A stretch of DNA of 64,000 bases from Candidatus Saccharimonadota bacterium (GTDB taxonomy: Bacteria > Patescibacteriota > Saccharimonadia > Saccharimonadales > Saccharimonadaceae): positions 17,151-81,150 of the forward strand of contig JAFWDS010000021.1 of assembly GCA_017516075.1 (NCBI GenBank), read 5' to 3'. The notes under the pieces were generated by a model. That model ran no database searches and was not told the origin of the DNA. It was given only the letters and a program-made list of their open reading frames with translations. This document shows positions 5,124-55,948 of this stretch, in pieces (position 1 is the stretch's first letter; each line of letters starts with the position of its first letter). A program made the translations under genes and the position numbers.

Positions 5124-5153
5124 AAATACCCCTCGCCATGAGGGGTATTTTTT
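5124..5153. terminator. Intrinsic (probably bidirectional) terminator
   Basis: aaatacccctc-gccat-gaggggtattttt between convergent genes. Confidence 0.8.
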
Positions 5154-6444
5154 ATGCAATAATTCCCCCACCAATGCAAATCTCGCCGTCATATAATACT
5201 GCCGACTGCCCACTCGCCGGCCGCTTCACTTCGTGCTCAAAATGCAACGTTTCGCCATCAAACGTCGCAGGGATTAGGGGCGCACGATGTCTTAAGCGAA
5301 CTAAGACCTGCTTTTTCTGAAGCATAACATGATTTGAATTTTCAACACGTATATTCCTGACGTCACCGACAGGTTCGTCCCGAAGGGACGGTTCTGCCGG
5401 CTGACCAGCGTATGACGTGCTTGAAAATTCAAGTCGCGCTGAAGAAAAAGCAGGTTTAGTTCGCATAAAAACATCTTTCAGTTTTAGTTCCTTAACCCAC
5501 AAATTTTCATCATTCAGATTTTTCGACACATATACGATATTTTGCCCGACATCTTTTTTGACCACATAATACGGCAACCCATCATTTACTACGCCCTTCT
5601 CACCATCTAGATACAACCCATGCCTCTGCCCAATTGTATAAAACACCGCCCCTTCGTGAAAACCGAGCACCTTGTTGCTCTCGATTTCGCGAATCTCACC
5701 TGGTTGAGCATCGATATATTCCTTGAGAAAATCCTTCATTCCTACCTCGCCAACAAAACACACCCCCATGGACTCTTTTTTGTAAGCATTATGCAGCCCA
5801 TGCTTCTTGGCGAGCTCCTTCACCTCCGGTTTCCGCATCTCACCTATGGGAAACAAAGTATGTTCCAAAGCTTCCTCGGAAATGCGATAAAGAAAATACG
5901 TCTGATCCTTATTCTCATCTATGGCGCGCATTAGACAAGTTCGGGACGATTGCGAACTAACTGTTTGGGGGCTTCCGGAGGTTACGACCGAGGATGAGGG
6001 CGCGAGCCCCGTAACGACGGGCGCGAGCGACCCGTCCCCCAAACAGTTATGTTCGAATCGTCCTATTCTCGCATAATGCCCCGTAGCAATATAATCAGCC
6101 CCTGCCTCCATCGCTTTCTCGTAAAAGAGCTTGAATTTAATCTCTTGATTACACATTATATCTGGATTTGGCGTATTCCCGGCGCGAAACTCACGTAGCA
6201 TATATTCCACCACCTTCTCTCGATATTCTTTTTCAAAATCCCAAACGAAAAAATCAATACCGAGCTTCACTGCCACTCTCTTGGCGTCGGCCAGGTCTTC
6301 TGCCCATGGGCACTTCATGCCAGGGAGGTCTCTAGACCAGTTTTTCATATATACACCAACAACGCGATATCCTTGCTGCTTCAAAAGCAAAGTCGATACG
6401 CTCGAATCTACTCCGCCACTCATTCCAACATACGCTGTTTTCAT
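5152..6444 (-). CDS. mnmA: tRNA-specific 2-thiouridylase MnmA carrying two in-frame palindromic insertions
   Basis: SGGVDS, NPDIMCNQEIKF, ATGHYAR, KDQTYFL, KKESMGVCFVG, YTIGQRHGL, GQSAVLYDGE.C.GGG; start reassigned to ATG 6444 (MKTAYVG). Confidence 0.95.
   Translation of the reverse strand: MKTAYVGMSGGVDSSVSTLLLKQQGYRVVGVYMKNWSRDLPGMKCPWAEDLADAKRVAVKLGIDFFVWDFEKEYREKVVEYMLREFRAGNTPNPDIMCNQEIKFKLFYEKAMEAGADYIATGHYARIGRFEHNCLGDGSLAPVVTGLAPSSSVVTSGSPQTVSSQSSRTCLMRAIDENKDQTYFLYRISEEALEHTLFPIGEMRKPEVKELAKKHGLHNAYKKESMGVCFVGEVGMKDFLKEYIDAQPGEIREIESNKVLGFHEGAVFYTIGQRHGLYLDGEKGVVNDGLPYYVVKKDVGQNIVYVSKNLNDENLWVKELKLKDVFMRTKPAFSSARLEFSSTSYAGQPAEPSLRDEPVGDVRNIRVENSNHVMLQKKQVLVRLRHRAPLIPATFDGETLHFEHEVKRPASGQSAVLYDGEICIGGGIIA
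5296..5464. mobile_element. Intragenic palindromic element, family B, in mnmA
   Basis: Arms gcgaactaa(g)acctgctttttct 5296-5318 / agaaaaagcaggtttagttcgc 5443-5464; 41-bp and 73-bp blocks shared with the iscS copy. Confidence 0.85.
5945..6062. mobile_element. Intragenic palindromic element, family A, in mnmA
   Basis: Perfect 14-bp inverted repeat taactgtttggggg / cccccaaacagtta; 80-bp core (5964-6043) identical to dnaX 50649-50728. Confidence 0.9.
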
Positions 6445-6527
6445 AAGTATTATTATACCATAATATGACATAAAAATACCAAAAATCAAGTCTACTAAAA
6501 CTAACATAACCATGATATATAATAAAT

Positions 6528-8360
6528 ATGAGAAAAAGGTGTGTGCTATTTGCGATGCCAATCCCGATTATTTTGGCGATTTTTGGAATTTTGTCACAAA
6601 ACAGTGTTTTTGCTCTTACCTACTCTACCGACGTTAATGTACAGTTTACTTTTAATCCGGCTCTGCAGATAGATTTATCTTCTGCGGATCTTCTAATTTC
6701 TAATCTTTCTCCTGGCACTGCAGCTGATTCTAATGTAATAGATGTAATAGTAAAGACTAATAATATCACCGGCTATACTCTGAATGCTACAGTGGGCAAT
6801 AATACTACATATGATACCCGCGATTTAGTACATGAAGTATCTGGTTCTTCAGCTAATTTTGCTAGTATTAACTACGGCTCTAGCCTAGCTAGTCTTACTA
6901 CTGACAATACTTGGGGTTATTCTTATTCTACTGATGGTGGTACAAATTGGGAAGACTATGATGGATTGCCACTTTATAGTGATGCTACTAATATTGCTAC
7001 ACTAAAAGACTCTACTACCCCTCCTGCTACTAGTACTGGAGATGTAGTAAACTTCAAAATTGCCGCAAAAGCCAGTACTATGCAAGCTTCTGGTGATTAT
7101 AATAACGTGATTAACTTTATTGCTACAGCAAATCCTATACCCACTTTAGGTCCAGTAGCCTGCGAGAGTGGCAAAATTTGTTACAATGCTAACGTATTGG
7201 ATTCAATCGAAGTAGAAGGGACGATGGGGAAACCTACTGCAAATGCAAACACTACCACCATGCTTCTCGCATCTAACTTCAGTAGAGATGGCTATGGTTT
7301 TGCTGGTTGGAGTGATACTTACGACTATAGCGGTAACTTATATGGTCCACAGGAAGAAATCACTACTCCGGCAGATATGTCTAGCGGACTTCCGCTTTAC
7401 GCTATCTGGGTTCAATCCGCTGGCAGTATGCAGACCAGTGATGCAACTAGCGCCTGTAATAGTCTCACTGCCGCTACTCCTGGATTTAAATCTCTTGCTA
7501 GTGTCACGGCTCTTACTGATGAACGCGATGGCGAAACTTACGCCATCGCTAAACTCGCCGATGGTAATTGTTGGATGATTGAAAACCTAAGACTAGATAA
7601 TACCGCAGACCATAATTCCGATGGTACATTAGCGCAGGGTTACAATTCTAGCTTTGCTGGTCTCGCTAGCCCAGAAGCGCCATCGCTCTTCGCTAACGCA
7701 ACCACTGCAAATACTTTGTATAGTATAGATGGCTCCACCGATAAAACTATTTCTGGTAGTGATCAAGGCTACAGATTTCCACGATATAACAATGTAAATA
7801 CTCCTACTGCAGTCGCCGACAGACCGAGCAATCCCACCACTAACTCCGCAACTAATAGCACCTCAAATGCTGGCTTATATAGTTATGGTAATTACTATAC
7901 CTGGTCGGCTGCTATAGCGGACACTACGCATTATCCCACAAATAACCAATCTGTCACCAGTACTTCTATATGTCCTACCGGTTGGCGCTTGCCAAAAGGT
8001 GGCAATAAATCAAATGAGGCAAATAATGATTACTGGGCGCTTGTTGTAACTGGAATTAATGGCGGCATAAATCCATCTAATTACGATAGCGAAACTAGAC
8101 CATATTATACTAGTTCCCCTGAAGGTCCGAGTATCTCGAATGCTCTTAGAGCATACCCCAATAATATTATTTATTCCGGATATGCCGAAGGTGGTTCAGT
8201 GGAAAATCGCGGTTCAGGTGGTGGACATTGGTCGTCTACGGCGGTTTCTACTACTAATGCCTACTCTATAGTGTTTTACAGCAACTACGTTTACACGGGT
8301 ACAGGCAGTAATTCCAAGTATTTCGGAAGAACTATCCGCTGTTTTGCCCCTGGCACATAA
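6528..8360 (+). CDS. Secreted FISUMP-domain surface protein (paralog 3)
   Basis: Signal peptide, WxL-like N-domain, GYGFAGWS, LADGNCWMIENLRL, YGNYYTW, CPTGWRLP, HWSST, TIRC. Confidence 0.8.
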   Translation: MRKRCVLFAMPIPIILAIFGILSQNSVFALTYSTDVNVQFTFNPALQIDLSSADLLISNLSPGTAADSNVIDVIVKTNNITGYTLNATVGNNTTYDTRDLVHEVSGSSANFASINYGSSLASLTTDNTWGYSYSTDGGTNWEDYDGLPLYSDATNIATLKDSTTPPATSTGDVVNFKIAAKASTMQASGDYNNVINFIATANPIPTLGPVACESGKICYNANVLDSIEVEGTMGKPTANANTTTMLLASNFSRDGYGFAGWSDTYDYSGNLYGPQEEITTPADMSSGLPLYAIWVQSAGSMQTSDATSACNSLTAATPGFKSLASVTALTDERDGETYAIAKLADGNCWMIENLRLDNTADHNSDGTLAQGYNSSFAGLASPEAPSLFANATTANTLYSIDGSTDKTISGSDQGYRFPRYNNVNTPTAVADRPSNPTTNSATNSTSNAGLYSYGNYYTWSAAIADTTHYPTNNQSVTSTSICPTGWRLPKGGNKSNEANNDYWALVVTGINGGINPSNYDSETRPYYTSSPEGPSISNALRAYPNNIIYSGYAEGGSVENRGSGGGHWSSTAVSTTNAYSIVFYSNYVYTGTGSNSKYFGRTIRCFAPGT

Positions 8361-9220: not shown

Positions 9221-10604
9221 TCGCAGTTCTTTGCTTTTCTGCCTGAACTACATCGTTTATGATCTTCGCCGCTTCATGAATCTGGGCCTCGTCGTTAGTC
9301 TCACCAAGAGTAATACGAAGCGAACCTGCAATTTGCGAATCGGAAAGCCCTATTGCTTTTAAAACATGCGAACGCACGCCTTTAGAAGCCGCGCAAGCCG
9401 CCCCTGTAGCTACATATACTTCTTTTTCTTCAAGAAGGAACACTAATCGTTCCGCATCTATATTATTATAGCATATAACTGCAAAATTGTCAAGAGAGTG
9501 CTTCTTGTTGATAAGCTCATACCCCTGTAATTCTTCGAGCAAAATCTTGCGCCATGAAGCGTATTTTTTACGATTGCCGTTTAGATGCTCCTTAGCGAGT
9601 TCCACCGCCTTCGCAAACCCAATCACGCCTGACACGTTTTCCGTACCAGAGCGCAGCCCATTTTCCTGCCCACCACCCATGGTTAATGGCTTCAGTCTTG
9701 CGTCATGTGATACATACAAAGCCCCCACGCCTTTCGGTCCATAAATCTTAGCCGAGTTTAGAGTAAGTAAATCCACACCTAAACGTGCAACATTAATATC
9801 TAGTAGATTCAATGCTTGCGAAGCATCAGAATGCAGCAATAGCTGCTTCTTAATTCCCCGTTTCATTCTATCAATCTTAATCTCGCGAATAATCGAAGCA
9901 ATCTCCGCCATCGGCTGAATCGTCCCCAACTCATTATTCACCAGAGCCACGGATATCAACTCCGTCTCATCAGAAATCTTGCTTCGCAAATCTTTCAAAT
10001 CGATTAGTCCATTTGAAAGCACGCGAACACTCTGTCCTCCGTACCTCTCCGCAACGCGCCTGATGGAATCATGCTCTGTTTCCAGATATAACACGGAAGC
10101 GCGGGTGGCTGAAACCTGTTTTTTCGGATGCATAACATGATTTGAATTTTCAACACGTATATTCCTGACGGACCCGACCGCTGTAGGAGACGATGATACA
10201 GAAAGCTTGCTTTCTGTATCTAGGCGACGCCCAGCGGACGATTTGTTTTCGACAGGTTCGTCCCGAAGGGACGGTTCTGCCGGCTGACCAGTGTATGACG
10301 TGCTTGAAAATTCAAGTCGCGCATCCGAAAAAATAGGTTCAGCCAGGCCCTGCGCCTCGGTACTAAGGCATGTAAACGCCAAATTATTCGCCTCGGTTGC
10401 GCCAGCGGTAATGACGAGGTCGGATGCTTTGGCTCCTATCGCATGCGCTATCACTGCTTTGGCGGCTTCATAATCAGAAGCAACTTTTTTAGCCGGCAAA
10501 TACGCCGCACTTGGATTAAAAAAATCAACCGCAAAATACGGCTCCATCGCCTTCAAAACTTTTTCATTTACCGGCGTTGCAGCCGCATGGTCAAGATATA
10601 TCAT
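9213..10604 (-). CDS. iscS: Cysteine desulfurase (IscS/NifS group I) with in-frame palindromic insertion
   Basis: IYLDHAAATP, ITAGATEANN, VNNELGTIQP, HSDASQA, SAKIYGPKGVGAL, GGQENGLRSGTEN, ATGAACA. Confidence 0.9.
   Translation of the reverse strand: MIYLDHAAATPVNEKVLKAMEPYFAVDFFNPSAAYLPAKKVASDYEAAKAVIAHAIGAKASDLVITAGATEANNLAFTCLSTEAQGLAEPIFSDARLEFSSTSYTGQPAEPSLRDEPVENKSSAGRRLDTESKLSVSSSPTAVGSVRNIRVENSNHVMHPKKQVSATRASVLYLETEHDSIRRVAERYGGQSVRVLSNGLIDLKDLRSKISDETELISVALVNNELGTIQPMAEIASIIREIKIDRMKRGIKKQLLLHSDASQALNLLDINVARLGVDLLTLNSAKIYGPKGVGALYVSHDARLKPLTMGGGQENGLRSGTENVSGVIGFAKAVELAKEHLNGNRKKYASWRKILLEELQGYELINKKHSLDNFAVICYNNIDAERLVFLLEEKEVYVATGAACAASKGVRSHVLKAIGLSDSQIAGSLRITLGETNDEAQIHEAAKIINDVVQAEKQRTATT
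10107..10344. mobile_element. Intragenic palindromic element, family B, with nested 75-bp module, in iscS
   Basis: Arms ggctgaaacctgttttttcggatgc / gcatccgaaaaaataggttcagcc; inner hairpin gatacagaaagc-tt-gctttctgtatc. Confidence 0.85.
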
Positions 10605-11680: not shown

Positions 11681-12508
11681 CTAAATACCGAAGAGTTTTC
11701 TTGCATTTTCCGTAGTCTCCTTCTCTATAATTTCGAACTTTTCGCCTAATTTTTCGCTGAGCCACGTGGCTACCTCGCGAACATAGGCCGGTTCATTAAT
11801 TATACCACGAAATTGCTTTGGAGTCAAGAAGGGAGCATCTGTTTCTAGGAGTATCCGCTCAAGTGGCGGAGTTGGCAAAGTCGAATACGTCGCAAGACCA
11901 TTGACTCCAACATAAAACTCTGTTTCATTTAAAATCCGCTTCAAAATCTTCTTGCTATCAGTAAAAGAATGCACTACGCCTCTTAATTTCGGAAAATTCT
12001 CAATCACCGGGAAAAAATCATAAAACGCCTCTCGCACATGAAAAGAAACCGGCAAATCATTGTCGATAGCGAGCTGGCACATCTGTTCAAATAGCCGAAT
12101 CTGCGCCTCGCAATCATAATCTTCATAATGGTAATCCAGCCCCACCTCCCCAATAGCCACTAAAGAAGAGGGCCTGTCATTTATGTCTCGCTTGGGGGCG
12201 CGTCCGGCCGGCCCGTCGCCACGGGCGGCCGGCGCTACCTCTCGCGCTGCCGCGCTCCGAACCCCCCTTCGCTGAGACATAAATGCCACCCCTTCTTTAG
12301 TTGCTGCTTCCGGATGAATTCCATAAGTCCAATAAACATTATCATGGCTATTAGCAAACTCCATAGCGTTCAAGGAATCTTCGTGACTGGTACCAATGCA
12401 GATTATTTTTTTGACATCTGCTTGATGGGCTCTATTGAGCATTTCGTTTGCTTGCTTTTCGGTAAAAAACTCCCTATCGTGTAGATGACAATGTGAATCA
12501 ATTAACAT
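11681..12508 (-). CDS. tatD: TatD-family hydrolase with in-frame palindromic insertion
   Basis: MLIDSHCHL, GIHP, AIGEVGLDYHY, FHVREA, GVVHSF, LLETDAPFLTP, NEPAYV. Confidence 0.93.
   Translation of the reverse strand: MLIDSHCHLHDREFFTEKQANEMLNRAHQADVKKIICIGTSHEDSLNAMEFANSHDNVYWTYGIHPEAATKEGVAFMSQRRGVRSAAAREVAPAARGDGPAGRAPKRDINDRPSSLVAIGEVGLDYHYEDYDCEAQIRLFEQMCQLAIDNDLPVSFHVREAFYDFFPVIENFPKLRGVVHSFTDSKKILKRILNETEFYVGVNGLATYSTLPTPPLERILLETDAPFLTPKQFRGIINEPAYVREVATWLSEKLGEKFEIIEKETTENARKLFGI
12179..12284. mobile_element. Intragenic palindromic element, family A, in tatD
   Basis: 11-bp inverted repeat atttatgtctc / gagacataaat; core ggggttcggagcgcggcagcgcgagag...cccgtggcgacggg on the - strand. 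Confidence 0.85.
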
Positions 12509-19538: not shown

Positions 19539-19693
19539 ATTTCTTTTTTTCGAAACATTTTGAAACTGCCCGATAAAAATTACAACAGTCACGGATGAGA
19601 ATCTGATACTGAAATATCAGGGCGAATCCGCCTGACCTGTTGTAATTTTTATGCGGCGCACGTTTCAACGTTGAAAAAAAAGAAATATGAATT
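19532..19693. repeat. Intergenic palindromic element, family C, overlapping ung start
   Basis: 16-bp IR ataaaaattacaacag/ctgttgtaatttttat plus 19-bp outer IR; near-identical inverted copy at 56573-56652. Confidence 0.85.
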
Positions 19694-32932: not shown

Positions 32933-35452
<2,520 letters not shown>

Positions 35453-42877: not shown

Positions 42878-43032
42878 ATTATAGCACATCGATGGGTGGC
42901 GACAACATTTCAGCGAAGGGGGGTTCGGAGCGCGGCAGCGCGAGAGGTAGCGCGCGAGCCCCGTGGCGACGGGAGCGAGCGACGCGCCCCCGAGCGAAAT
43001 GTTTCGACAGGACCCATCGAAAGTGCTATAAT
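42878..43032. mobile_element. Intergenic family A element between two divergent promoters
   Basis: Arms attatagcac/gtgctataat, tcgatgggt/acccatcga, aacatttc/gaaatgtt; core shared with tatD and tgt copies. Confidence 0.85.
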
Positions 43033-44120: not shown

Positions 44121-44787
44121 TTAAAAGTACAGTCGTTGCAAAAGCAGTAGAATCAATTCTATCCAAGAATCCCCCATGTCCTTCTGTGCCACCTACTACA
44201 AGCTCTAACTTTTCAAAGAATTGATTCTTAATTAGGATTTCATTCGAGTCCTTGACATTAAAGGTGCGTTTCAAATGACTTTCAAATAAATCTCCCATTA
44301 GAGCTAGTGGGCCACAAAGCAAATATGCCCAATCTGTTCTAAAATTCCCTAGCGTTATCATCAAAATTAAGACCAACATAAAAGAAGATAGTAGTCCCAA
44401 AACTGTTCCTTCCCAAGTTTTATTCTTCGAAATATGCGGGAATGGACGCGATTTCCTAAAAATCTTCCCGCCAAAAGCCTTGCCAAACAAATATGCAAAA
44501 ATATCGTATCCGCATACACCGAAGATAATATACCAAAAATGCATCGCATCAATCTGCGCTACAAATATCGTCCCGTAAATCAAAAATCCAGTCTCTAAAA
44601 TTGCCAAGATAATATTAGAAAAAGAATACTTTTTTTTGAAAAAACTCATTAACTCAATAAATGACACAAAGGCAAATAGTCCAAAGATAATTTTAAAAGG
44701 GATACTATCGAAAGAATACAATGCAATCAGAGCCACAAAGAACATACTAAATCCTACGATGAGTCTAACTCTAAAATTCTTGTCCAT
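44101..44787 (-). CDS. cdsA: Phosphatidate cytidylyltransferase
   Basis: DIFAYLFGK, PHISKNKTWEG, GDLFESHLKR..NVKDS, GHGGFLDRIDS. Confidence 0.9.
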   Translation of the reverse strand: MDKNFRVRLIVGFSMFFVALIALYSFDSIPFKIIFGLFAFVSFIELMSFFKKKYSFSNIILAILETGFLIYGTIFVAQIDAMHFWYIIFGVCGYDIFAYLFGKAFGGKIFRKSRPFPHISKNKTWEGTVLGLLSSFMLVLILMITLGNFRTDWAYLLCGPLALMGDLFESHLKRTFNVKDSNEILIKNQFFEKLELVVGGTEGHGGFLDRIDSTAFATTVLLIISFFA

Positions 44788-44832
44788 AACCAGATTATAT
44801 CATAATTTATTGTAATGTGCTAAAATATACCT

Positions 44833-46566
44833 ATGCCTTTAGAATACATTTATAACAAACTCAAAAACACTTTGCGCAGGCTTGATATGAAGCTTGAGCG
44901 CGCCAAGTACTCTTACATAGATAAAATGCCACACGATATCGAATACTTCGATGGTGGTATGTACGATGTTGTGTATGAATCATCTTGTAAGTGGCCACAC
45001 AATATCGCTTTGCAATATTTCGACACTGAAATCACCTACAAAGAAATGGTCAAAAAAATCAATAAAGTCGCCGCCGCGCTAAAAGCAATTGGAGCCGAGA
45101 AGGGCGACCGGATTTCTGTCTGTATGCCCAACACCCCAGAAGCAATCTACATGTTCTATGCTATCAACGAAATCGGCGCCGTCGCTAACATGATTCATCC
45201 GCTCTCTAGCGAAAAAGAAATTGAAGACTACGTCAATCAAGCCCATTCCAATATCATCTTATGCATTGACATTTCCTACCCCAAAGTCGAAGCTATCATC
45301 AAAAACACCGAGCTCGAACAAGTTATCGTTGTCTCCCCCACGCGCTCGATGGCAAGCGTAGTTCGCATAATCTACAAACTCACCAAGGGGCGCAAAAACC
45401 ACATCAAGAAATCTCAAAACATTATCACCTGGGATAAATTCTTGCTCAAAGCCAATAAGTTCATCGGTAATCCTCATGCGCGCGTTAATCCTAAAGACGA
45501 TGCCGTAATCATGTATTCGGGCGGCACCACCGGCAAACCCAAAGGTATCATGCTCTCAAACCTCAATTTCAATGCTCAGGCTCTCGGTGCGAAATACCTA
45601 GTCCCGGAATTGTTTAAATCCGAATACTCCTTTATGGCATTCTTGCCCAACTTTCACGCCTTTGGTCTAGGATGCTGCATTCATATGCCATTATATAATG
45701 GCGCGCGCTCTTTTCTGATTCCGCAGTTCAACCCCAAGAAATTCAAGAGCTATATCGTAAAGTATAAAGTCAGTATTTTAGTTGGGGTCCCCACAGTGTT
45801 CGAATACCTCACTAAGATCAAGTTCAAAAAGGACGCCCTGAAAAACGTCAAATACGTCGTTTCTGGTGGCGACATGATTAGTATGTCAAGCAAAGAATCG
45901 ATCAATGATTTTCTTAAGGAGCATGGCTCCAAAGCCAAGATTGAAAACGGCTATGGTCTCACTGAAGCATCTGGTGGTTTCATTTTTTCACCACCCAAAG
46001 TCGCCGAAGATCCGGACGCTATCGGCTATCCTCTACCAGACAACGAGGTGCTTATCATGGACCTCAAGACCAAAAAACCCGCCAAACAAGGCAATGATGG
46101 CGAAATACTGGTCCGCGGTCTTGCAGTCATGAAAGGTTATATCAACAAGCCTAAAGAAACCGCCGAAGCCTTCATCACTGTTAACGGCAAAAAATACCTT
46201 CGCACCGGAGACGTAGGCTATATAGATGAAAACGGCGTAGTCCATTTCCGTACCCGTCTCAAACGTATGATTATTAGTAATGGCTACAATATTTATCCAG
46301 CCAACATCGAGGACGTTACTTTAAAATGCAAAAACGTTGCCGCTTGCGCCGCCGTAGGTCATGAAGACAAACTTCGCGGCGAAATAGTCGTCGTATTTGT
46401 CGTGGCAAATCCAGACACATCAGAACGCGCCATCAAAAAAGAACTAAACAGTATCTACAAAAAACATCTCGCCAAATACGAGATTCCACGCGAAATCCGC
46501 TTCCTGCCCGAACTCCCCAAGACTAAAATGGCTAAAGTAGACTTTAAAGCATTAGAGCAATTATAA
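44833..46566 (+). CDS. Class I adenylate-forming enzyme (long-chain acyl-CoA ligase-like)
   Basis: YSGGTTGKPKG, LPNFHAFG, NGYGLTE, LRTGDVG, R.KRMIISNGYNIYP, LPKTKMAKVD. Confidence 0.85.
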   Translation: MPLEYIYNKLKNTLRRLDMKLERAKYSYIDKMPHDIEYFDGGMYDVVYESSCKWPHNIALQYFDTEITYKEMVKKINKVAAALKAIGAEKGDRISVCMPNTPEAIYMFYAINEIGAVANMIHPLSSEKEIEDYVNQAHSNIILCIDISYPKVEAIIKNTELEQVIVVSPTRSMASVVRIIYKLTKGRKNHIKKSQNIITWDKFLLKANKFIGNPHARVNPKDDAVIMYSGGTTGKPKGIMLSNLNFNAQALGAKYLVPELFKSEYSFMAFLPNFHAFGLGCCIHMPLYNGARSFLIPQFNPKKFKSYIVKYKVSILVGVPTVFEYLTKIKFKKDALKNVKYVVSGGDMISMSSKESINDFLKEHGSKAKIENGYGLTEASGGFIFSPPKVAEDPDAIGYPLPDNEVLIMDLKTKKPAKQGNDGEILVRGLAVMKGYINKPKETAEAFITVNGKKYLRTGDVGYIDENGVVHFRTRLKRMIISNGYNIYPANIEDVTLKCKNVAACAAVGHEDKLRGEIVVVFVVANPDTSERAIKKELNSIYKKHLAKYEIPREIRFLPELPKTKMAKVDFKALEQL

Positions 46567-47166
46567 ATCAGTCCGATTTTCAAGTGCTGCACTTAAGGTA
46601 ATTTGATCTGCATATGAGAGATCGATACCGAGCGGAAGCCCCCGTGCAAGTCTCGTGAGTTTGAGATTCGGATTTTGCTCGTGTAAGATTCTCTCTAGAT
46701 ATAGTGCGGTTGATTCTCCTTCAACCGAAGGATTAGTCGCGATAATTATCTCTTTGACATTGTCATTATTCGCACGTTTAATTAGCTCACCAATATGTAA
46801 TTGTTCAGGCGTCACGCCATCGATGGGAGAGATTGCTCCACCCAATACGTGATAAGTTCCCTTGTACCCACGCGTCTGTTCAATCGCATAAATATCTAGA
46901 GGTTCTTCCACTACTAGAATAGTAGTTTTATCGCGTTCAGGGTCGCTATAAAAAGGCGAAACTTCATCTTCGGCATCAATTAATGCAAAAGTTACAGGGC
47001 AAGACTTAACGCTAGAATGTAGATTTGACAGCGCCAAAGCAATATTATCAGATATTTTATCGTTTGATTTAAAAAGATAATAAGCATATCGCTCGGCAGT
47101 GCGCGGACCAACTCCGGGGAGCATAGACAAAGCGTCAATTACGTTATTAAAAGCTTGTGGCAGCAT
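46561..47166 (-). CDS. recR: Recombination mediator RecR (Zn-finger cysteines mostly lost)
   Basis: LPGVGPRTAER, VVEEPLD, YHVLGGAISP.DG, EIIIATNPSVEGESTA, RLARGLP.G. Confidence 0.93.
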   Translation of the reverse strand: MLPQAFNNVIDALSMLPGVGPRTAERYAYYLFKSNDKISDNIALALSNLHSSVKSCPVTFALIDAEDEVSPFYSDPERDKTTILVVEEPLDIYAIEQTRGYKGTYHVLGGAISPIDGVTPEQLHIGELIKRANNDNVKEIIIATNPSVEGESTALYLERILHEQNPNLKLTRLARGLPLGIDLSYADQITLSAALENRTDL

Positions 47167-47168
47167 TA

Positions 47169-47474
47169 TTACATTCCGCCAAGACCGAGACCAGAAAGTC
47201 CACCCATTAGAGGCTTCATTTTGTCGGTTGCAATTTCCTGAGCCTTTGCGAATCCATCACGCATACAATTCTCAATCCAACGCTCAAGTTCGTGAATATC
47301 GTCTAAGTCAACTTTTTCAGGATCGATTTTAACTTTTTTGACTTTGAGCTCACCATTAATCTGCACGACTACAGCGCCATCACCAGCCTCAACTTCGACT
47401 ATTTCGTTCTTTAGTTCTTTCTGAGCTTTGCGCAACTGATTTAGTAGTTTCATTTGGTCTAATGTTTGACCCAT
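47169..47474 (-). CDS. ybaB: YbaB/EbfC nucleoid-associated protein
   Basis: AQKEL...VEVEAGDGAVVVQING...IDP; adjacent to recR. Confidence 0.88.
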   Translation of the reverse strand: MGQTLDQMKLLNQLRKAQKELKNEIVEVEAGDGAVVVQINGELKVKKVKIDPEKVDLDDIHELERWIENCMRDGFAKAQEIATDKMKPLMGGLSGLGLGGM

Positions 47475-47475
47475 G

Positions 47476-48921
47476 TTATTCTCCTTCCTTCTTTTCGGTA
47501 AAAGTATATAGATATATTATATCAGAGTTATCTCTCATTGGCGAGGTGATAATTTTAGATAGAGAGTAATTTTCCGGAACTTTTTCCAGTTTGCCTAGCA
47601 CAGCAAAAATCGGCAAATTCGTCATATTGTCGACAATTTCGATATCAGAAGAACCCTCGAGTATCTTATAGAAGTCATATCTATTATTAACTACTAGTTT
47701 TTCGTTCGTTAAGTTCTTCTTTATTATTTCCACATCGTAGTTAAATTCATTTGCTACGGTCGGGCTATACCGATAACCATAGATATACTGCATCAAACTC
47801 GGGAAAATCATAATACTAAACAAGATAGTTAGCGGCAAGAGCGCCGAGATTCTTGCATAGGGGTTTTCCGGGAATAATCCATACCATTTTTCAAGCAAAT
47901 ACTTTAGACCATGCGCAATGAGTATCGAAAAAGGCAGAATAAAGAAGATAACGGCGCTAGGATTAAAACCAGTAATAATAATACAGAACACTAGAAGAAT
48001 TGTAGCGATAGAATTTCTTGAGGCAAAGAAACCCTTGGTAGTCGAAAAAAGTCCAATTAATGCAAGCGCGAATGTTGGCAAACTAATCAACGGAGATAGA
48101 TAAACACTTTCAACGCTATTATACCAAGAGAATACCGGCATAAATCCTTTCACGATATTACCGAAGAAATTACCAATCTGGAAATTATTGGTAAACAATA
48201 GTTCCATGATAGTATCGGTATGGTTATAGATGCTAATTCCAAGCAATACAAAACCCCCAACCAAGATTAACCCGACAATAATCAGCGGAAGTTTAGGCAA
48301 ATCTTTCACTATAAAACGTAAATGTGGCTGAAGTGCCACAAATAGTACACAAAATATCGCAAAATAAATCATATATGGTGTAAAAATAGATAGTAGCATT
48401 GCGATAGCAAACATGAACGAATACATCGGCTTTGGGCGTTTCTCGCCCTGGATTTTTGAACCCAACCACAGAAGGAGAGTAGGCCAAAAAACGACCATAA
48501 TCAGCGGTGTACCATTCCCTGCCAAAAACAAGAACGGAGTCGACAACACAATAAGACATGAAGCCAAAAGCGAAACATTGCTTTTAAACCATCTGTTAAG
48601 CAGTAGTATTAGCAAGAACCCCAGTAATATTCCAACCAGAATACTCGGAAGCTTAACACTAAAAGCAGATAAACCCAAAAATGTTATGGAATACTTTTGT
48701 ACTATTCTGTAAGGCAAATCTACTAAGTCGCCATTCAAAATACCATTTCGCCCTAAATAATAAGAGCTCGTAGCCGAATCCATCTCCGCATCAGATAAAC
48801 CAGTTTGTGCTATTAATGGCAACGTAAAAAGAAGAGCCAAAAAAGTAATTCCAAGCAAAATATACCCAATCACAAATCGATATCTGTACAAAAAAAGTTT
48901 AGAAACAATTGTTTTCTTCAC
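47476..48921 (-). CDS. Polytopic membrane protein, GT-C (ArnT/PMT-like) glycosyltransferase-like
   Basis: ~11 TM helices; DLPY, KLPS motifs; GTG start. Confidence 0.55.
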   Translation of the reverse strand: MKKTIVSKLFLYRYRFVIGYILLGITFLALLFTLPLIAQTGLSDAEMDSATSSYYLGRNGILNGDLVDLPYRIVQKYSITFLGLSAFSVKLPSILVGILLGFLLILLLNRWFKSNVSLLASCLIVLSTPFLFLAGNGTPLIMVVFWPTLLLWLGSKIQGEKRPKPMYSFMFAIAMLLSIFTPYMIYFAIFCVLFVALQPHLRFIVKDLPKLPLIIVGLILVGGFVLLGISIYNHTDTIMELLFTNNFQIGNFFGNIVKGFMPVFSWYNSVESVYLSPLISLPTFALALIGLFSTTKGFFASRNSIATILLVFCIIITGFNPSAVIFFILPFSILIAHGLKYLLEKWYGLFPENPYARISALLPLTILFSIMIFPSLMQYIYGYRYSPTVANEFNYDVEIIKKNLTNEKLVVNNRYDFYKILEGSSDIEIVDNMTNLPIFAVLGKLEKVPENYSLSKIITSPMRDNSDIIYLYTFTEKKEGE

Positions 48922-48956
48922 AAATCTATTATATCATAAACAAAATCAAAACAACA

Positions 48957-50315
48957 CTATCGTTCTTTGTCGAGCGACATAAATCTGAGTAGTTCGGGAT
49001 GAAAATATAATTCAATCTTACCTACAGCGCCATGACGATGCTTAGCGATCAATAGCTCAGTGATATTAGTTTCTTCGTAGTTATCATCATTTTGGTGATA
49101 ATAGTCGGGGCGATGCAAAAACATCACTAGGTCAGCATCTTGCTCAATAGAGCCAGATTCACGCAAATCCGACAAAATCGGTCTAGGATTCTCTCTACCT
49201 GTCACATTACGAGAAAGCTGTGCGAGAGCTATTACTGGAATACCTAATTCACGCGCTAAAATCTTTAATCCGCGCGAAACCTCCGAAACCTCTTGCGTAC
49301 GTTGCCCCCTGTAGCGTTCAGAACCCTGAATGAGCTGCAAATAATCAACAATCACTATGCCGATATCATGGTCGTGCATAGCACGGCGGGCTTTATTTCG
49401 AAGCTCAGAAATCGTCATCGAGCTAGTATCGTCAATATAAATCGGTATTTCGTCCATTTCGGCGAGCGCATCGCCAATTCTCTGGAACTCCTCGTCGGTG
49501 AGATTGCCTGTTCTGATATTCCAGTTATTGACTCCAGAAACGTCCGAAACAATTCTGTCTACAATTTCATTTGACGCCATCTCCATCGAAAAGAACAAAA
49601 CAGCCTTTTTGTTGATACTAGCAATATTATATGCTAAATTTTGCGCCAATGTGGTTTTACCCATTGCCGGCCTTGCACCAATGATAACCAAATCGCCTTT
49701 CTGGAAACCAGCCGTTTTCTTATCGAGATCCCGAAATCCAGTCTTCAGTCCTCGGAGTGCACCCTTGTTTTTATGCAAGTTCTCAATTCTGTCAAATGCA
49801 TCGGCTAGGAGTGAATCCATCGAAACATAATCACTCCGTACAATCTTGTCAGAAACCTCGAATAGCTTCGCCTCCGCAGAGCCAATTAAGTCATCTGTAT
49901 TAACATCATCCTCAAACGCCTTTTCAGTAATCAAGCTTCCGGCGCTAATTAACCTGCGACGAATCGCCATTTTTTCAATAATTTCAGCGTAGGCTTTAGC
50001 ATGTGAAGCCGCCGGAACAAAATTAGAAAGTTCAGCTAAGTATTCGCCTCCACCAATATCTTTTAATACTTTTCTCGATTTTAATTCCGATGTTAGCGTC
50101 AACAAATCAATTGGCTTGTGTTGGTCATACAAACTAGCCATTGCATCAAATATAATCTGATGACGTTTTTCGTAAAAATCGTTCGGTGTTAAAACATTCA
50201 GAATTTCTGGCAAAACCGAATCCTGTAACAAGACCGCACCAAGCAAAGACTTCTCCGCAACTTCGTCGTGCGGTGGCACCTTGATGCTATTAGAATGGGC
50301 TTTTTCCTCCGTCAT
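48957..50315 (-). CDS. dnaB: Replicative DNA helicase
   Basis: PPHDEVAEKSLLG, TGFRDLD, GARPAMGKT, FSMEM, IVDYLQL, LAQLSR, LRESGSIEQDAD, KHRHG. Confidence 0.97.
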   Translation of the reverse strand: MTEEKAHSNSIKVPPHDEVAEKSLLGAVLLQDSVLPEILNVLTPNDFYEKRHQIIFDAMASLYDQHKPIDLLTLTSELKSRKVLKDIGGGEYLAELSNFVPAASHAKAYAEIIEKMAIRRRLISAGSLITEKAFEDDVNTDDLIGSAEAKLFEVSDKIVRSDYVSMDSLLADAFDRIENLHKNKGALRGLKTGFRDLDKKTAGFQKGDLVIIGARPAMGKTTLAQNLAYNIASINKKAVLFFSMEMASNEIVDRIVSDVSGVNNWNIRTGNLTDEEFQRIGDALAEMDEIPIYIDDTSSMTISELRNKARRAMHDHDIGIVIVDYLQLIQGSERYRGQRTQEVSEVSRGLKILARELGIPVIALAQLSRNVTGRENPRPILSDLRESGSIEQDADLVMFLHRPDYYHQNDDNYEETNITELLIAKHRHGAVGKIELYFHPELLRFMSLDKER

Positions 50316-51753
50316 TTCTTACCTCTCCACCCATTATATCAGATATTTTTTCGAGCACAGCGTCCTTTTTTTCGCTACTAGGGTGCTCATCAGCCTCATG
50401 TATTGTAATTTTTACAAGCCCATCCGTTGCTTGCACTATGACTTTTTTATTGTTTTCTTTTGTTAGAATTGTCTTTATTATATTCCGCATCGGATAAATA
50501 TCTAGCGTATTATCGGTATAAGTGTATTTGCACTTTTTAATCTGTGAATAAACCACATCACTAAGATTCTGCACCCTCGTCAAAAACCCATCCCAGTCGA
50601 AATCGACAGATTGTGAAGGTTGATTGGACGGCAATCGCAAACTATTACTTTGGGGGCTTCCGGAGGTTACGACCGAGGATGAGGGCGCGAGCCCCGTAAC
50701 GACGGGCGCGAGCGACCCGTCCCCCAAAGTAATATGTTTGGATTGACGTCCTTCAGCCTTTCCCGGCGGTCCAGCGTATGAGGTGCTTAAAAATCCAAGT
50801 CGCGCATCCGAAGAAACAGGTTTAACCACGTTTTGAAGAGATAAAGCAACCAACAATTTCGCTTCTGGAAACGGCGCTTTTACATCGGGCAATTTAGCAA
50901 GTAATTTAATTAACGTCGGTTTCGGATTTTCAATGATTTTGGCAATGATTTCCTCTGCCAACGTCTCCGCCTTTACTCCAGACGACAACAAATCTTTCAA
51001 AAGCCCAGATATTTGCTGAGAATCGCCAGCCTCATAACAGGTCAGTAGTTTATTAATCTGTTCATCTTGCGGTAGCCCCAAAGCCTTCACGACCAGTTTT
51101 TCATCAATTAACTCGTCAGATAAGGTTGAAATTTGTTCCAAAAGCGATAGAGAGTCTCTAAATGATCCACCGCCTCGCCTCACAATTATAGAAAGAGCAT
51201 CATCCGAAATACTATAATTTTCTTTGCTGGCGACAGACTTCAGATAATCAAACATCGTTTTTGAATCAGCAAGCTTAAAAGTATAGGTCTGCGCTCTTGA
51301 AGTAATCGTTACTGGTACTTTATAAGCGTCAGTGGTCGCCATAATAAATATAGCGTGTTCGGGCGGCTCTTCTAGAGTCTTTAGAAGTGCATTGAAGGCT
51401 TCCTTAGTTAGCATATGAACTTCATCTATAATATATATTTTGTATTTTGCGTGCGTCGGCGCAATAGCGACCTTCTCGCGAAGATCCCTAATATTATCAA
51501 TCCCGCGATTACTCGCGCCATCGATTTCGATAATATCAACATATTCGTCTTCGACTTTATAATCAAAACCATTCACGGCGTGAGCAAAAATTCTCGCCAC
51601 GCTTGTTTTGCCGCAACCTCTCGGACCAATAAAAAGATATGCATGAGAAACCCGATTTTGTTCCAATGATTTAATCAAAGGCTCAGTCACTTGTGGCTGC
51701 GCAACAACATCCTCCAGCCTCGTCGGCCGATACTTTCTATATAAAGCCTTCAT
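50290..51753 (-). CDS. dnaX: DNA polymerase III subunit gamma/tau with composite in-frame palindromic insertion
   Basis: ALYRKYRP, GPRGCGKTS, EIDGASNRG, IIDEVHML, AFNALLKTLEEP, SRAQ, GSFRDSLS. Confidence 0.95.
   Translation of the reverse strand: MKALYRKYRPTRLEDVVAQPQVTEPLIKSLEQNRVSHAYLFIGPRGCGKTSVARIFAHAVNGFDYKVEDEYVDIIEIDGASNRGIDNIRDLREKVAIAPTHAKYKIYIIDEVHMLTKEAFNALLKTLEEPPEHAIFIMATTDAYKVPVTITSRAQTYTFKLADSKTMFDYLKSVASKENYSISDDALSIIVRRGGGSFRDSLSLLEQISTLSDELIDEKLVVKALGLPQDEQINKLLTCYEAGDSQQISGLLKDLLSSGVKAETLAEEIIAKIIENPKPTLIKLLAKLPDVKAPFPEAKLLVALSLQNVVKPVSSDARLGFLSTSYAGPPGKAEGRQSKHITLGDGSLAPVVTGLAPSSSVVTSGSPQSNSLRLPSNQPSQSVDFDWDGFLTRVQNLSDVVYSQIKKCKYTYTDNTLDIYPMRNIIKTILTKENNKKVIVQATDGLVKITIHEADEHPSSEKKDAVLEKISDIMGGEVRNDGGKSPF
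50625..50822. mobile_element. Composite intragenic element in dnaX: full family A hairpin (50625-50751) plus isolated family B arm (50771-50822)
   Basis: 14-bp IR tattactttggggg/cccccaaagtaata; ccagcgtatgaggtgcttaaaaatccaagtcgcgcatccgaagaaacagg matches family B right arm. Confidence 0.85.
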
Positions 51754-51760
51754 ATATTAA

Positions 51761-52282
51761 TTATAACATAGCTTCGACGGCAGCCCAGGTAGCTTCGTCG
51801 TTCTTGGCAGGGATGGTTACAGAAACCTGTGAACCTTCGTGCAAATGGAAATAAGTTACCGATGCGTACAAAATCTGGTATTCCTTACCAGCAACTTCTA
51901 CAAAGTATTTATCATCATGGTGAGTTAGAGTTCCGATCACGGTCTTTCGCTCTACTGGACCAATCTGCTTATAGAGGAATCTGCCATCTTCAGTGATAGT
52001 AAGTTTCATAATATCACCTTCGACAAGCTTTGATTTCGAAGCATAATTAGCCGGGACTGGATAATTTTTGCCATCTGGACCAATCATTATTTGACCATCG
52101 AAGATTCCTTCAATGACTTTACCTTCTGGGCTAGAAACTACCGTCTCGCGCGGAGCAGTAATAGTCTCTCCATCACCAAGGATAGAAATTAATAGTTCTT
52201 TCGCAGCCGATAAATTAGTCTCTGCTTCTCCAAGCAGACTGCGCAAGCGCTTTATTTGTTTTTCTGGTATTTCAGACATCAC
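51761..52282 (-). CDS. Conserved hypothetical protein (CPR-type)
   Basis: Coiled-coil N-terminus; KVIEGIFDGQIMIGPDGKNYPVPANYASKSKLVEGD motif. Confidence 0.75.
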   Translation of the reverse strand: MMSEIPEKQIKRLRSLLGEAETNLSAAKELLISILGDGETITAPRETVVSSPEGKVIEGIFDGQIMIGPDGKNYPVPANYASKSKLVEGDIMKLTITEDGRFLYKQIGPVERKTVIGTLTHHDDKYFVEVAGKEYQILYASVTYFHLHEGSQVSVTIPAKNDEATWAAVEAML

Positions 52283-52423
52283 CTCGCATTCCTGTCTAAA
52301 TATGGTATTATTATTATAATATACCTACTCCATAGTAAAGTCAAGTAGAATTATGCGTAGTTATCCACCTAAAAAACCTCGGTCGATTAAAAAATGTTGT
52401 AAATTTTACATAAAAACTAATGC

Positions 52424-53479
52424 TTATTCTCCTGGCTTCCAAAGCCCAGTATGCTTCTTGCCATCGATAATCATAGTTGGAATACCTTTAACCCTCAGTT
52501 GCTTTTCGACTATTTCGCGGTTCTCATTCATCTTGTCAGCAGTCTCTGGATAGTTAGCGATCTCTCGTATCTTTTCAACGCCATTTTTATCGACTCCAGC
52601 CTCTTTAAGCCACGATTCAATTTTGTTAATTGCTTCTTCGCGTGAATAATCGTCATTAAACTTTTGTTGGTACGAAAGTCCCTCGCTGTTTTTACCAGTA
52701 TAGATTTTATCTATGATATACAGTGACAAATCTGATTTGTACTGTTCTGAAGCAAACATATATCGTACCACAATCTCTGAATTTTTGAATTTGTAGTTGT
52801 CATCGGCATCTTGAATCGCAAATGGTACCAACCTCACATTATGCGTGTCAAAGAAGCCAGTGTCTTTTTGGTTACGATACGAAATCATACAAACAGAGCA
52901 ACCTGGATCGAAAATATCTACCACGACAGGTAAACCAGCAACTTCACCGTTATTAATACTAATATAAGCAAAATCGTAATCATCGGCGTTATAGGTTTTG
53001 AATTTGTCTGGAATTGCCTCAAAGATTTCACCCCACTCCGTAAACCATCTACCAGTAGCCTCAAAAACATTGGAAGGTTCGGATTCGTCTATCGAGCAGA
53101 CCTCAGCGCCTAGAGAACACGCCGAAGGTTTAGTCACGTTACAAGACCCCAGTGCCCAGAGTGCTAGCAATGATTTAATGGCAGTCAAAATCGCCCAAAC
53201 CGCTACTACTACGATTACAATCGAAAAAACCTCAATTATTATCGACAAAGGCTTCACCCACTTTGGATGTTTAATTATCACCTTCGAAAGTAAGCTATTT
53301 TTCACATCATCTTTAAAGCCGGTCTCGCATTTCTGCAAACGCACCTTTTTCCAAAGGCATCCCCATGCCTTTTTCATAGCTTTAAGATAAGCCTTACCAA
53401 CCTTTGGTTTAAATATCGAAATCAGCGCCACAAACACGCCAATAAGAGCAAGAATAATAAAAGCAGCTATGCACACCAT
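52424..53479 (-). CDS. Membrane protein with C-terminal thioredoxin/DsbA-like domain
   Basis: Two TM segments; FDPGCSVC (CxxC) and GIPT cis-Pro loop. Confidence 0.65.
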   Translation of the reverse strand: MVCIAAFIILALIGVFVALISIFKPKVGKAYLKAMKKAWGCLWKKVRLQKCETGFKDDVKNSLLSKVIIKHPKWVKPLSIIIEVFSIVIVVVAVWAILTAIKSLLALWALGSCNVTKPSACSLGAEVCSIDESEPSNVFEATGRWFTEWGEIFEAIPDKFKTYNADDYDFAYISINNGEVAGLPVVVDIFDPGCSVCMISYRNQKDTGFFDTHNVRLVPFAIQDADDNYKFKNSEIVVRYMFASEQYKSDLSLYIIDKIYTGKNSEGLSYQQKFNDDYSREEAINKIESWLKEAGVDKNGVEKIREIANYPETADKMNENREIVEKQLRVKGIPTMIIDGKKHTGLWKPGE

Positions 53480-53486
53480 AATACAA

Positions 53487-54650: not shown

Positions 54651-54705
54651 AATATATATTATAGCTGTAATTGCAAAATAAATCAAAGTGTGATATAATA
54701 GAAGA

Positions 54706-54780
54706 TAGTTACCAAAGACAGTGGCGGGAGAAATCCTTAATCATGCCACCGAGGCAAATTCTTGTATTGTTTGGTGACGC
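54706..54780 (+). promoter_or_regulatory. Ribosomal protein L10 leader (autoregulatory RNA)
   Basis: gttaccaaAGACAGtggc...TTAA...gccaCCGAGG...tttggtgac directly upstream of rplJ. Confidence 0.75.
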
Positions 54781-54835
54781 TATTTAACAATTAGCTAGCT
54801 CATCGACTAATATTAAAATAACCAAAGGACTTTTT

Positions 54836-55357
54836 ATGGCAATTTCAAAGGATAAAAAGAACACATTGGTTGCTGATTTAACGGAACTCTTAGAGAACGC
54901 CAAGTCTACCGTCTATGCCAAATATCAAGGCTTGACCGTAGCTGAGCTTCAAGAGCTTCGTAAAAATGCTCGCGAAGCGGGTGTGAAGATCAAAGTCGTC
55001 AAAAACCGTTTAGTGCGAGTTGCGATGAATCAAATTGCAGTCTACAAAGACACTGATACTACTGGGCTCACTGGCCAGTTACTTTACGCCATCTCTGATG
55101 ACGATGAGGTCGCTCCAGCCAAAGTCCTAGCCGAGTTTGCCAAGAAGCATAACGCCCTAGACCTCATTGGCGGGTTCAGTGATCTTGGTATTAGCTTGTC
55201 TCAGGACGAAGTCAAGTCTCTAGCTGCAATGCCAAGCAAGAACGAGCTGATCGCTCAGGTCGTCGCACAACTTCTCTCTCCAGTTACCGACTCGATTTCC
55301 GGCCTTTCTGGCGGGTTATCCGGTATCGTATCTGGGCTTGAAGCTCACGCAAATTAG
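54836..55357 (+). CDS. rplJ: 50S ribosomal protein L10
   Basis: YQGLTVAELQELRK, KVVKNRL, AAMPSKNELIAQV. Confidence 0.95.
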   Translation: MAISKDKKNTLVADLTELLENAKSTVYAKYQGLTVAELQELRKNAREAGVKIKVVKNRLVRVAMNQIAVYKDTDTTGLTGQLLYAISDDDEVAPAKVLAEFAKKHNALDLIGGFSDLGISLSQDEVKSLAAMPSKNELIAQVVAQLLSPVTDSISGLSGGLSGIVSGLEAHAN

Positions 55358-55380: not shown

Positions 55381-55493
55381 GAGGTGGAAATTTTTCGACT
55401 CGGGGGATTCCGGAGGCTGCTGCCGAGGGTTAGCGCCCGAGCCCCGTGAAGACGGGCGCGAGGGACGCGACCCCGAGTGAAAAATTTCACCTC
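55381..55493. mobile_element. Intergenic family A element between rplJ and rplL
   Basis: Arms gaggtg(g)aaatttttc(g)actcgggg / ccccgagtgaaaaatttcacctc; core with cccgt-gaag-acggg. Confidence 0.85.
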
Positions 55494-55945: not shown

Positions 55946-55948
55946 GTT

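Follow-up and report, generated by a model that had tools for sequence, protein, structure and literature searches.

What kind of sequence can lie, letter for letter, in two different genes of one genome and be closed in each of them by a different stem? The question is raised by the essential genes mnmA and dnaX in the window, which is the whole 64,000-nucleotide stretch of DNA analysed here and belongs to a 924-kb, 43% G+C, 37-contig metagenome-assembled genome (MAG) of Candidatus Saccharibacteria, genus Nanosyncoccus, from the ruminant gut. All 80 of the 80 nucleotides at 5964-6043 in mnmA recur at 50649-50728 in dnaX, and each block is bounded by a box that pairs with its own partner, TAACTG/CAGTTA in mnmA and TATTAC/GTAATA in dnaX. 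Both points had been made in an earlier reading of the letters alone (the sequence-only reading), and both are confirmed. Our answer, to which we assign a probability of about 0.6, is that the mnmA and dnaX blocks belong to paralogues, two copies of a palindromic DNA repeat that is confined to the genus, non-autonomous and either selfish or neutral; we call this 'hairpin parasite' family A. The two host genes and the parts of the two copies are as follows.

5152..6561, - strand: mnmA open reading frame (ORF; tRNA 2-thiouridylase), Pfam PF03054, PF20258 and PF20259, open across both inserts
mnmA site 1: family A element, net +39 codons between ATGHYAR and LMRAIDENKDQ
mnmA site 2: element of a second family, B, at about 5296-5464
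5944..6063, + strand: family A element in mnmA, antisense to the gene; covariance model (CM) match 5953-6053, 97.5 bits
5944-5957, + strand: outer arm of the mnmA copy, GGACGATTGCGAAC
5958-5963, + strand: box TAACTG of the mnmA copy
5964-6043, + strand: core of the mnmA copy
6044-6049, + strand: partner box CAGTTA of the mnmA copy
6050, + strand: bulged T of the mnmA copy
6051-6063, + strand: outer arm of the mnmA copy, GTTCGAATCGTCC
50290..51753, - strand: dnaX ORF (DNA polymerase III gamma/tau), PF13177 and PF22608, with the element in a variable linker
50626..50751, + strand: family A element in dnaX, antisense to the gene; CM match 50638-50738, 99.4 bits
50626-50642, + strand: outer arm of the dnaX copy, GGACGGCAATCGCAAAC
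50643-50648, + strand: box TATTAC of the dnaX copy
50649-50728, + strand: core of the dnaX copy
50729-50734, + strand: partner box GTAATA of the dnaX copy
50735, + strand: bulged T of the dnaX copy
50736-50751, + strand: outer arm of the dnaX copy, GTTTGGATTGACGTCC
Y-shaped core of both copies: P1 GGGGG/CCCCC; hairpin 1 GGT-TACG-ACC inside TCC...GGA; hairpin 2 GGGCGCGAGCCCCGT-AACG-ACGGGCGCGAGCGACCC

Each identical block forms the tip of a near-perfect hairpin of about 120 nt inside an intact ORF. Folded as RNA, the mnmA copy reaches -73 and the dnaX copy -71 kcal/mol (z -8.4 and -7.3); folded as DNA, both reach about -42 kcal/mol (z about -7), and none of 200 shuffled sequences folded as well. 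The sequence-only reading had also described imperfect outer arms that pair within each copy. This pairing is present, and the one correction is that the outer arms of the two copies are related to each other and not independent. They have GGACG...(A)TTGCG/ATCGCAAAC in common, and a third related copy, at mnmA site 2 of a sister strain, has the arms ATTCGAAC/GTTCGCAAT and the bulge as well. Divergence between the mnmA and dnaX arms is about 30-40%, and to judge from their sequences they are probably homologous. No direct repeats are visible at the flanks of either copy, where the alignments of filled and empty alleles are too divergent to place base-exact junctions.

The two copies belong to a large family. 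Iterated nhmmer searches and a CM placed about 38 family A copies in this genome. With the CM the family was found in 56 of 61 sampled Nanosyncoccus congeners, at 0 to 38 copies per genome with five genomes that have none, and in 0 of 199 other sampled genomes of the same order, which cover 151 other genera. The element has no Rfam match at gathering score; the only hits are chance matches to microRNA hairpins of 15-18 bits, compared with gathering scores of 80-95. A description of this family was not found in the literature searched. Searches for a partner enzyme were also negative. The Y1_Tnp domain (PF01797) has 0 matches in this genome and is absent from 55 of the 61 genus genomes searched, this one included; it is present in the other 6, and the control genomes matched as expected. 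This genome has no near-identical multicopy ORF of a transposase-like kind, and its near-identical pairs are only ClpP, a VirB4-like ATPase and two unknowns. Family A is apparently an undescribed, transposase-less, genus-specific hairpin DNA repeat.

The core common to all copies has three parts: P1 (GGGG/CCCC), in front of which a GA/GA internal loop is often found; hairpin 1, which is short and lies within a conserved GGAG...CGAG frame; and hairpin 2, which is longer and of the form GCGCGAGCCCCGT-NNNN-ACGGGCGCGAGCGAC and variants. Beyond the variable stem, a clamp of the sequence GGGTGAC...GTCAGGACCC is conserved in several copies. RNAalifold finds the same core fold, with compensatory change at 13 of 23 pairs. 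Over 114 copies, pairing in the helices of the core reaches 95-98%, and 15 of 20 pairs have changed in a compensatory way. A CM alignment of 114 distinct copies from other species has 92.9% of its cells paired, compared with 69.4% for shuffled sequences and 36-49% when the register is slid, and it contains double changes at 32 of 37 pairs. All four Watson-Crick pairs occur at every outer-stem position; at one of them the counts are GC 31, UA 28, AU 19 and CG 18. Since such an alignment is fitted to the structure, we added an alignment-free comparison of cognate and non-cognate duplexes. For the outer 20 nt in 30 copies of this genome, cognate arms pair at -20.4 kcal/mol and non-cognate arms at -7.2 +/- 3.2 kcal/mol. 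The CM and duplex tests were preferred to fixed-register pairing on a MAFFT alignment, where the outer stem is only 64% paired owing to bulges. These values dispose of the possibility, raised with the sequence-only reading, that the arms pair no better than shuffled controls. The arm sequence itself is free: among copies with cores at least 90% identical the arms are about 55% identical, near the 49% of shuffled arms. BLAST of every arm against the genome returned only the arm itself and its partner, which rules out that the arms are guides to, or copies of, other genomic sequence.

Some copies are more elaborate. In queA (33250-33415) and in L114 (6834-6970), L059 and L096, extra hairpin modules sit precisely within the apical loop of hairpin 1 or hairpin 2; labels of the form L0xx-L2xx denote independent European Nucleotide Archive (ENA) assemblies or contigs of relatives. 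A piece CGCCCCTTGGGACGCG..., similar to the nested modules, lies inside the core in metagenome unitigs.

The reading frames lead to the same result as the stems. In this genome 31 of 37 copies lie within long ORFs and keep the frame open, 6 are truly intergenic and none interrupts a gene; the in-frame genic share is about 70-85% of copies. Host ORFs use all six frames of the element (sense 33/20/5, antisense 20/16/2; 134 copies from this genome and others), and in about 100 genic copies the host frame stays open, stop codons being absent in all six frames and phases. The use of all six frames means that no peptide is conserved and that the constraint is on the nucleic acid. It is the nucleic-acid structure that is conserved, not the peptide or the sequence. 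The earlier proposal that base pairing is what is kept thus stands, with some 150 copies that are paired, have free stem sequences and are read in six frames. The keeping of frame and the avoidance of stop codons suggest that the insert is translated, and it appears to form an extra loop of about 39 residues. If it is read through, the flanks of MnmA and DnaX would be joined by an insert peptide such as ...GDGSLAPVVTGLAPSSSVVTSGSPQ....

The orientation of the elements gives a clue to where this structure matters. Relative to the host gene, 17 copies of this genome are sense and 14 antisense, and 44 and 25 respectively in other species. When read with hairpin 1 before hairpin 2, the element lies on the C-rich strand in 31 of 37 copies here and in 78 of 100 in other species (p = 1.6e-8). 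Sorted by the strand of the host gene, the counts are as follows.

Host gene on the C-rich strand: element on the C-rich versus G-rich strand 13:1 in this genome, 29:2 in other species
Host gene on the G-rich strand: element on the C-rich versus G-rich strand 13:4 in this genome, 23:15 in other species

On the C-rich model strand, G-T and A-C mismatches number 74:35 in the stems and 81:11 in the core. Orientation thus tracks the strand asymmetry linked to replication (GC skew), not transcription. Because it follows GC skew and not gene direction, the hairpin most likely matters as single-stranded DNA at replication; we infer that it acts there as one particular strand, and not at the level of mRNA.

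Comparison of orthologous copies shows how the stems change. In the mnmA alleles of this genome, L058 and L206 the outer arm is kept while the 10-bp box next to P1 varies (TAACTGTTTG, TAATCACTCG and TGATG(C)CTCG), and each version is matched by its own 3' arm. These three alleles differ by 8 compensated double changes, 7 of which are transitions, and by 2 uncompensated single changes; between this genome and L058 all five changes are transitions. In L074 and L086, orthologues with flanks at 75-80% identity, 8 of 27 stem positions have changed and all are compensated. The stems are constrained to pair and change via compensated double substitutions. They do not change unusually fast. Orthologous stems are usually 77-100% identical where the flanks are about 76-80% identical, which rules out hypermutation of the stem, and between L066 and L105 the whole element is 98% identical and its flanks 76%. 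A mutagenesis of the box at adenines, as in diversity-generating retroelements, is ruled out as well, since the differences are not adenine-specific. The core shows a different pattern. It has 0 of 80 differences between the mnmA and dnaX paralogs and about 12 of 80 between the mnmA copy and its orthologue in L058, whose outer arms are identical. This contrast points to homogenisation of cores within the genome, in line with the suggestion of the sequence-only reading that a core with zero divergence reflects recent movement or gene conversion.

What was inserted can be seen where the same site is filled in one genome and empty in another. At mnmA site 1 no more than 4-5 codons separate ATGHYAR from L.RA.DENKDQ in many congeners; here there are 39 codons more (117 nt), for a hairpin of 120 nt, and other species have inserts of 78, 81, 117 or 120 nt at this site, in either orientation. 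The net gain at tgt is 123-135 nt (41-45 codons) relative to congeners with an empty site, for a three-layer hairpin of 150 nt. The whole hairpin is extra at mnmA, at tgt and in L088 (+138 nt). Homologues of dnaX at 68-69% identity are without the insert. The mnmA/dnaX sub-lineage seems to have moved as an entire hairpin of about 117 nt, given the relatedness of the outer arms in its two copies and the gain of the full hairpin at mnmA. No clean empty allele emerged from the DNA runs, where Logan unitigs break in the repeat, and an exact-pattern scan of JGI metagenome contigs for extra alleles of the mnmA site gave 0 matches.

Partial duplications lie beside some elements. In a truB-like gene of this genome (contig C10, 8047-8240), a stretch made up of the core's 3' end, the 3' arm and about 14 nt of flank is repeated in tandem 72 bp downstream; the partial tandem duplicate is placed at 8142-8237, and the repeat duplicates the peptide GDASDKIQSHLISDTGR. 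Similar partial repeats of arm plus core stand beside elements in L086 and L061. They look like scars of slippage or template switching at hairpins.

Elements are also exchanged between lineages together with their surroundings. In this genome and two near-identical strains, P0002 and P0007, the two mnmA sites have different occupants.

This genome: mnmA site 1 family A, site 2 family B
Strain P0002: mnmA site 1 family A, site 2 family A
Strain P0007: mnmA site 1 family B, site 2 family A

The changed tracts in mnmA reach into flanking codons, which indicates homologous recombination between lineages. A similar picture was obtained with the contig L175, which is about 80% identical to the window over 44290-57467 except in two islands. 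The first, at 50290-51090 (800 bp, 97-99% identity), is centred on the dnaX element; the second, at 55289-57088 (91-100%, mostly 96-100%), holds an intergenic copy and another hairpin repeat. Eight comparisons with more distant species gave no excess of identity around shared elements. The pattern, seen in one close pair and not in the 8 distant comparisons, does not make the elements general islands of recombination or identity, and we read the islands as elements travelling with their flanks and not as a hotspot function.

These observations suggest the following course of events. The element would be tolerated in genes because its length is a multiple of three, it brings no stop into the host frame and it sits in permissive protein loops. 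Its hairpin would matter as one single strand of DNA during replication, where it might aid copying, let template switching 'perfect' the arms or help the element to escape deletion. Duplication of a whole hairpin may have produced the mnmA and dnaX paralogs, whose arms would afterwards have drifted under the constraint to pair. The cores would then have been homogenised or replaced recently, by ectopic gene conversion or by copy-choice confined to the shared core. As the differences between paired arms are mirror-symmetric, the identical block would end at symmetric positions. Between lineages, elements may also travel with their flanks by homologous recombination.

A bolder version of this course is conceivable, and we hold it only tentatively: a Y-shaped module of about 80 nt of single-stranded DNA might spread or exchange without a transposase, via replication copy-choice at hairpin tips, and then recruit or rebuild a locus-specific stem from neighbouring sequence, which would be a new kind of prokaryotic mobile DNA. 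Such a module would explain the copy-specific stems, the nesting in loops, the reuse of sites, the partial duplications of arm plus core and the strand bias.

Several observations weigh against paralogous copies of a selfish or neutral repeat. Nine filled sites in other species were compared with empty orthologous sites, and at six of them the net gain of 81-96 nt falls short of the hairpin length of 113-130 nt. Transposition of whole elements does not account for this, and host flank must at least in some cases have gone into the stem or been built over by it. The conserved clamp that some copies have beyond their variable stem is explained neither by movement of whole hairpins nor by movement of cores. 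Transversions distinguish the box in mnmA from that in dnaX, and for these G-T intermediates offer no path; the identity of the two cores could reflect a very recent transposition of the core only into older hairpins. As DNA, either strand folds almost as well as the other, which does not account for the orientation bias. The case for translation is statistical, drawn from frames and stop codons. Two candidate RNA runs were the only ones to turn up, with contigs of relatives in them and no transcripts of this organism. RNase III is encoded in this genome (contig C29, 8558-9208), and about 30 mRNAs should carry near-perfect stems of 25-35 bp, which it would be expected to cut; loss of the enzyme as the reason why the stems are tolerated is ruled out, because rnc is present throughout the genus. 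Finally, no movement event was caught, and neither an enzyme nor a mechanism was identified.

The shortfall at six sites leads directly to the strongest alternative, namely that only the core of about 80 nt is mobile and that the outer stem is host flank copied in inverted form by template switching or fold-back, with the mnmA and dnaX arms derived from their targets. The comparison with empty sites that the sequence-only reading had proposed for the origin of the arms gave a divided answer: at the six sites the core and about one arm are extra, as with target-derived arms, and at mnmA, tgt and L088 the whole hairpin is. In the clearest cases, L076 and L109, aligned with contig C5 of this genome, the 5' arm corresponds to native residues (DELEKA/NSAIR versus EDFNEA/NEAVR) and the 3' arm is its inverted copy. 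These filled and empty pairs have a protein identity of 56-89%, at which an insertion with a deletion looks the same as overwriting. The tandem duplicates at C10 8142-8237 and in L086 and L061 are what slippage predicts, and an orientation set by replication and arms unique to each locus also suit mobility of the core. We nevertheless regard this as an unlikely account of the two loci. At mnmA 117 of the 120 nt are extra; the arms at mnmA, at dnaX and at site 2 of the sister strain are alike, which means that they were carried and not made from the target; and in copies like that in tgt the variable stem between clamp and core is extra in its entirety. Local building of stems by a process like template switching thus probably occurs within the family, but it does not explain the mnmA and dnaX arms.

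The remaining alternatives are less probable still. An element that works as RNA, for cis-regulation, as the source of a small RNA or as an intervening sequence cut out of the mRNA by, for example, RNase III cleavage and ligation, so that the proteins would be free of the insert, would account for a covariation as strong as in functional RNAs, for the UACG loops that resemble tetraloops and for the conserved U-G pairs; RNase III, moreover, is expected to cut such stems. We give little credence to it, because orientation is independent of the host gene and tracks GC skew, because about 100 genic copies keep a stop-free frame that excision would make needless, and because Rfam has no match. A DNA site that benefits the host and whose orientation is tied to replication, such as a recombination hotspot, a DNA-uptake signal or a signal of chromosome architecture, appears similarly improbable. 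The orientation bias does resemble that of Chi or KOPS-type signals, islands of 97-100% identity, in DNA that is about 80% identical, surround all three elements of the only close comparison, and some orthologous elements outconserve their flanks, as in L066 and L105. But a copy number of 0 to 38 among congeners, with none in five genomes, is unexpected for an essential signal, the eight more distant comparisons lack an excess of identity, and placement in essential coding sequence is costly when intergenic space would serve. An assembly artefact, in which a collapsed or chimeric repeat was misplaced in two genes, is very improbable, even though the MAG is in 37 contigs, the core is about 340 times as abundant as the flanks in source-like metagenomes and short unitigs break in it. 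Independent ENA assemblies from other samples have the mnmA element (L056) and the dnaX element (L175) in identical form, Logan unitigs connect each flank and arm with the core on both sides, both ORFs are open, and hundreds of copies in other genomes share the anatomy. The fear of a misassembled repeat, expressed in the sequence-only reading, is thereby laid to rest. Paralogous copies of a hairpin repeat therefore remain our preferred reading.

How does family A relate to known repeats? The closest known analogue is the Rickettsia palindromic element (RPE), a short palindromic repeat of about 100-150 bp in a reduced genome, many copies of which lie in frame in unrelated housekeeping genes and are read through (PMC10969869). 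No transposase is known for RPEs, and surface loops tolerate them. Members of any one RPE family share a peptide, in a fixed reading frame, and are alike from end to end; the review mentions no bias of their orientation with GC skew (PMC10969869). Family A resembles RPEs as a set of dispersed in-frame palindromes (about 38 copies, 31 of 37 genic, none disruptive). It differs in that six frames are used, only the core of about 80 nt is shared, the stem differs at each locus and the core is a covarying structure of two hairpins. The hosts are Saccharibacteria of one genus, in a different phylum, and on this host range common descent with RPE-1 to RPE-10 is implausible.

REP and REPIN sequences, which are mobilised by RAYT transposases of the Y1/HUH type in the IS200/IS605 superfamily, are GC-rich imperfect palindromes that act as single-stranded DNA hairpins, with compensatory change and strand effects linked to replication. 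They are extragenic, whereas 84% of the copies here are within ORFs, and they co-occur with a RAYT gene, whereas PF01797 is absent here. Family A is not a classical miniature inverted-repeat transposable element either, for its terminal arms differ at each locus and no multicopy transposase-like ORF is present. The attC sites of integrons are recombined as folded single strands with conserved structure and free sequence and length; one strand is active, and orientation relative to replication matters. They lie between cassettes beside an integron integrase, with R''/L''-L'/R' boxes (RYYYAAC...GTTRRRY). Our elements, in contrast, lie within ORFs all over the chromosome, among them mnmA, dnaX, tgt, tatD and queA, and the arm ends of the mnmA and dnaX copies (GCGAAC/GTTCGAA and GCAAAC/GTTTGGA) do not fit GTTRRRY; an integrase was not searched for.

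Quasipalindrome mutagenesis by template switching would produce complementary arms without selection and multi-base changes in both arms, linked to replication. It is a process and not a family of elements, and it leaves the conserved core unaccounted for, as well as the spread of that core. Among the three mnmA alleles, 7 of 8 compensated changes are transitions, which fits selection via G-T intermediates equally well. The mobile GC clusters and byp elements of yeast mitochondria are GC-rich hairpin mini-elements that have invaded coding genes of an AT-richer, reduced genome. The ribosome skips byp elements, and these may be out of frame, whereas frame and stop avoidance are strict here, and there is no sequence relation. 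A self-splicing intron or an intein does not fit an element of about 120 nt without an Rfam intron match, with 39 codons that are read in any frame and orientation.

Besides the copies in mnmA and dnaX, the window contains five further family A copies and one partial family B module.

12180..12284, - strand: family A copy in tatD (ORF 11681-12508, - strand), sense; outer clamp GGGTG.C...G.CAGG.CCC
33250..33415, + strand: family A copy in queA, 49.1 bits, 166 nt, with a further module nested within
34759..34860, + strand: family A copy in tgt (ORF 34205-35452, + strand), sense; its layers are clamp, variable stem and core
42903..43003, + strand: intergenic family A copy
55388..55487, + strand: intergenic family A copy in the rplJ-rplL spacer; a contig of a relative has 25 other bases there
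50733..50825, + strand: partial family B module that adjoins the dnaX family A copy, 61% identical to 5367-5459; encodes SSDARLGFLSTSYAGPPGK

Family B is a second palindromic family, with peptides like FSSARLEFSSTSYAG..PAEPSLRDEP..VRNIRVENSNH, found in the window at 5296-5464, 10107-10345 and 50733-50825; it occupies mnmA site 2 and iscS. Another dispersed repeat of 116 nt is present at 19563-19678 and 56547-56662 (85% complementary); it has its own hairpin with an AT-rich stem (56533-56691) and no match to the family A model. The sole Rfam match in the whole window is the ribosomal protein L10 leader at 54694-54845 (RF00557, 56.4 bits), which lies upstream of rplJ. A single large multigene family exists in the genome, made up of surface-protein paralogs of about 550-610 aa, at 1152-39239 and 63254-63847 in the window and on many contigs, with a Fibrobacter-type motif (TALTD.RD..TY...KLADG.CWM.ENL) and 60-86% mutual identity. 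A contig of a sheep-ileum MAG (JAFWJE010000010.1, L117) is 99.7% identical to contig C9 of this genome over 54011-60735, so that the same species or strain has been assembled independently.

If our reading is correct, family A adds to the RPE phenomenon a second case, independent and from another phylum, with features that are unreported for RPEs: a covarying core, stems of free sequence, a bias to one replication strand and the swapping of occupants at fixed sites. The combination of free stem sequence and kept pairing offers a natural experiment on how DNA or RNA structure is maintained, by selection through G-T intermediates or by templated copying of arms. In practice, such repeats break short-read assemblies, inflate the variation of protein length in Saccharibacteria MAGs and mark tracts of recombination between species. 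For the organism, a correct reading would mean that structured hairpin repeats in genes such as dnaX, mnmA, tgt and truB make up about 0.5% of a minimal, host-dependent genome and that its proteins carry insertions of about 40 residues which vary among strains.

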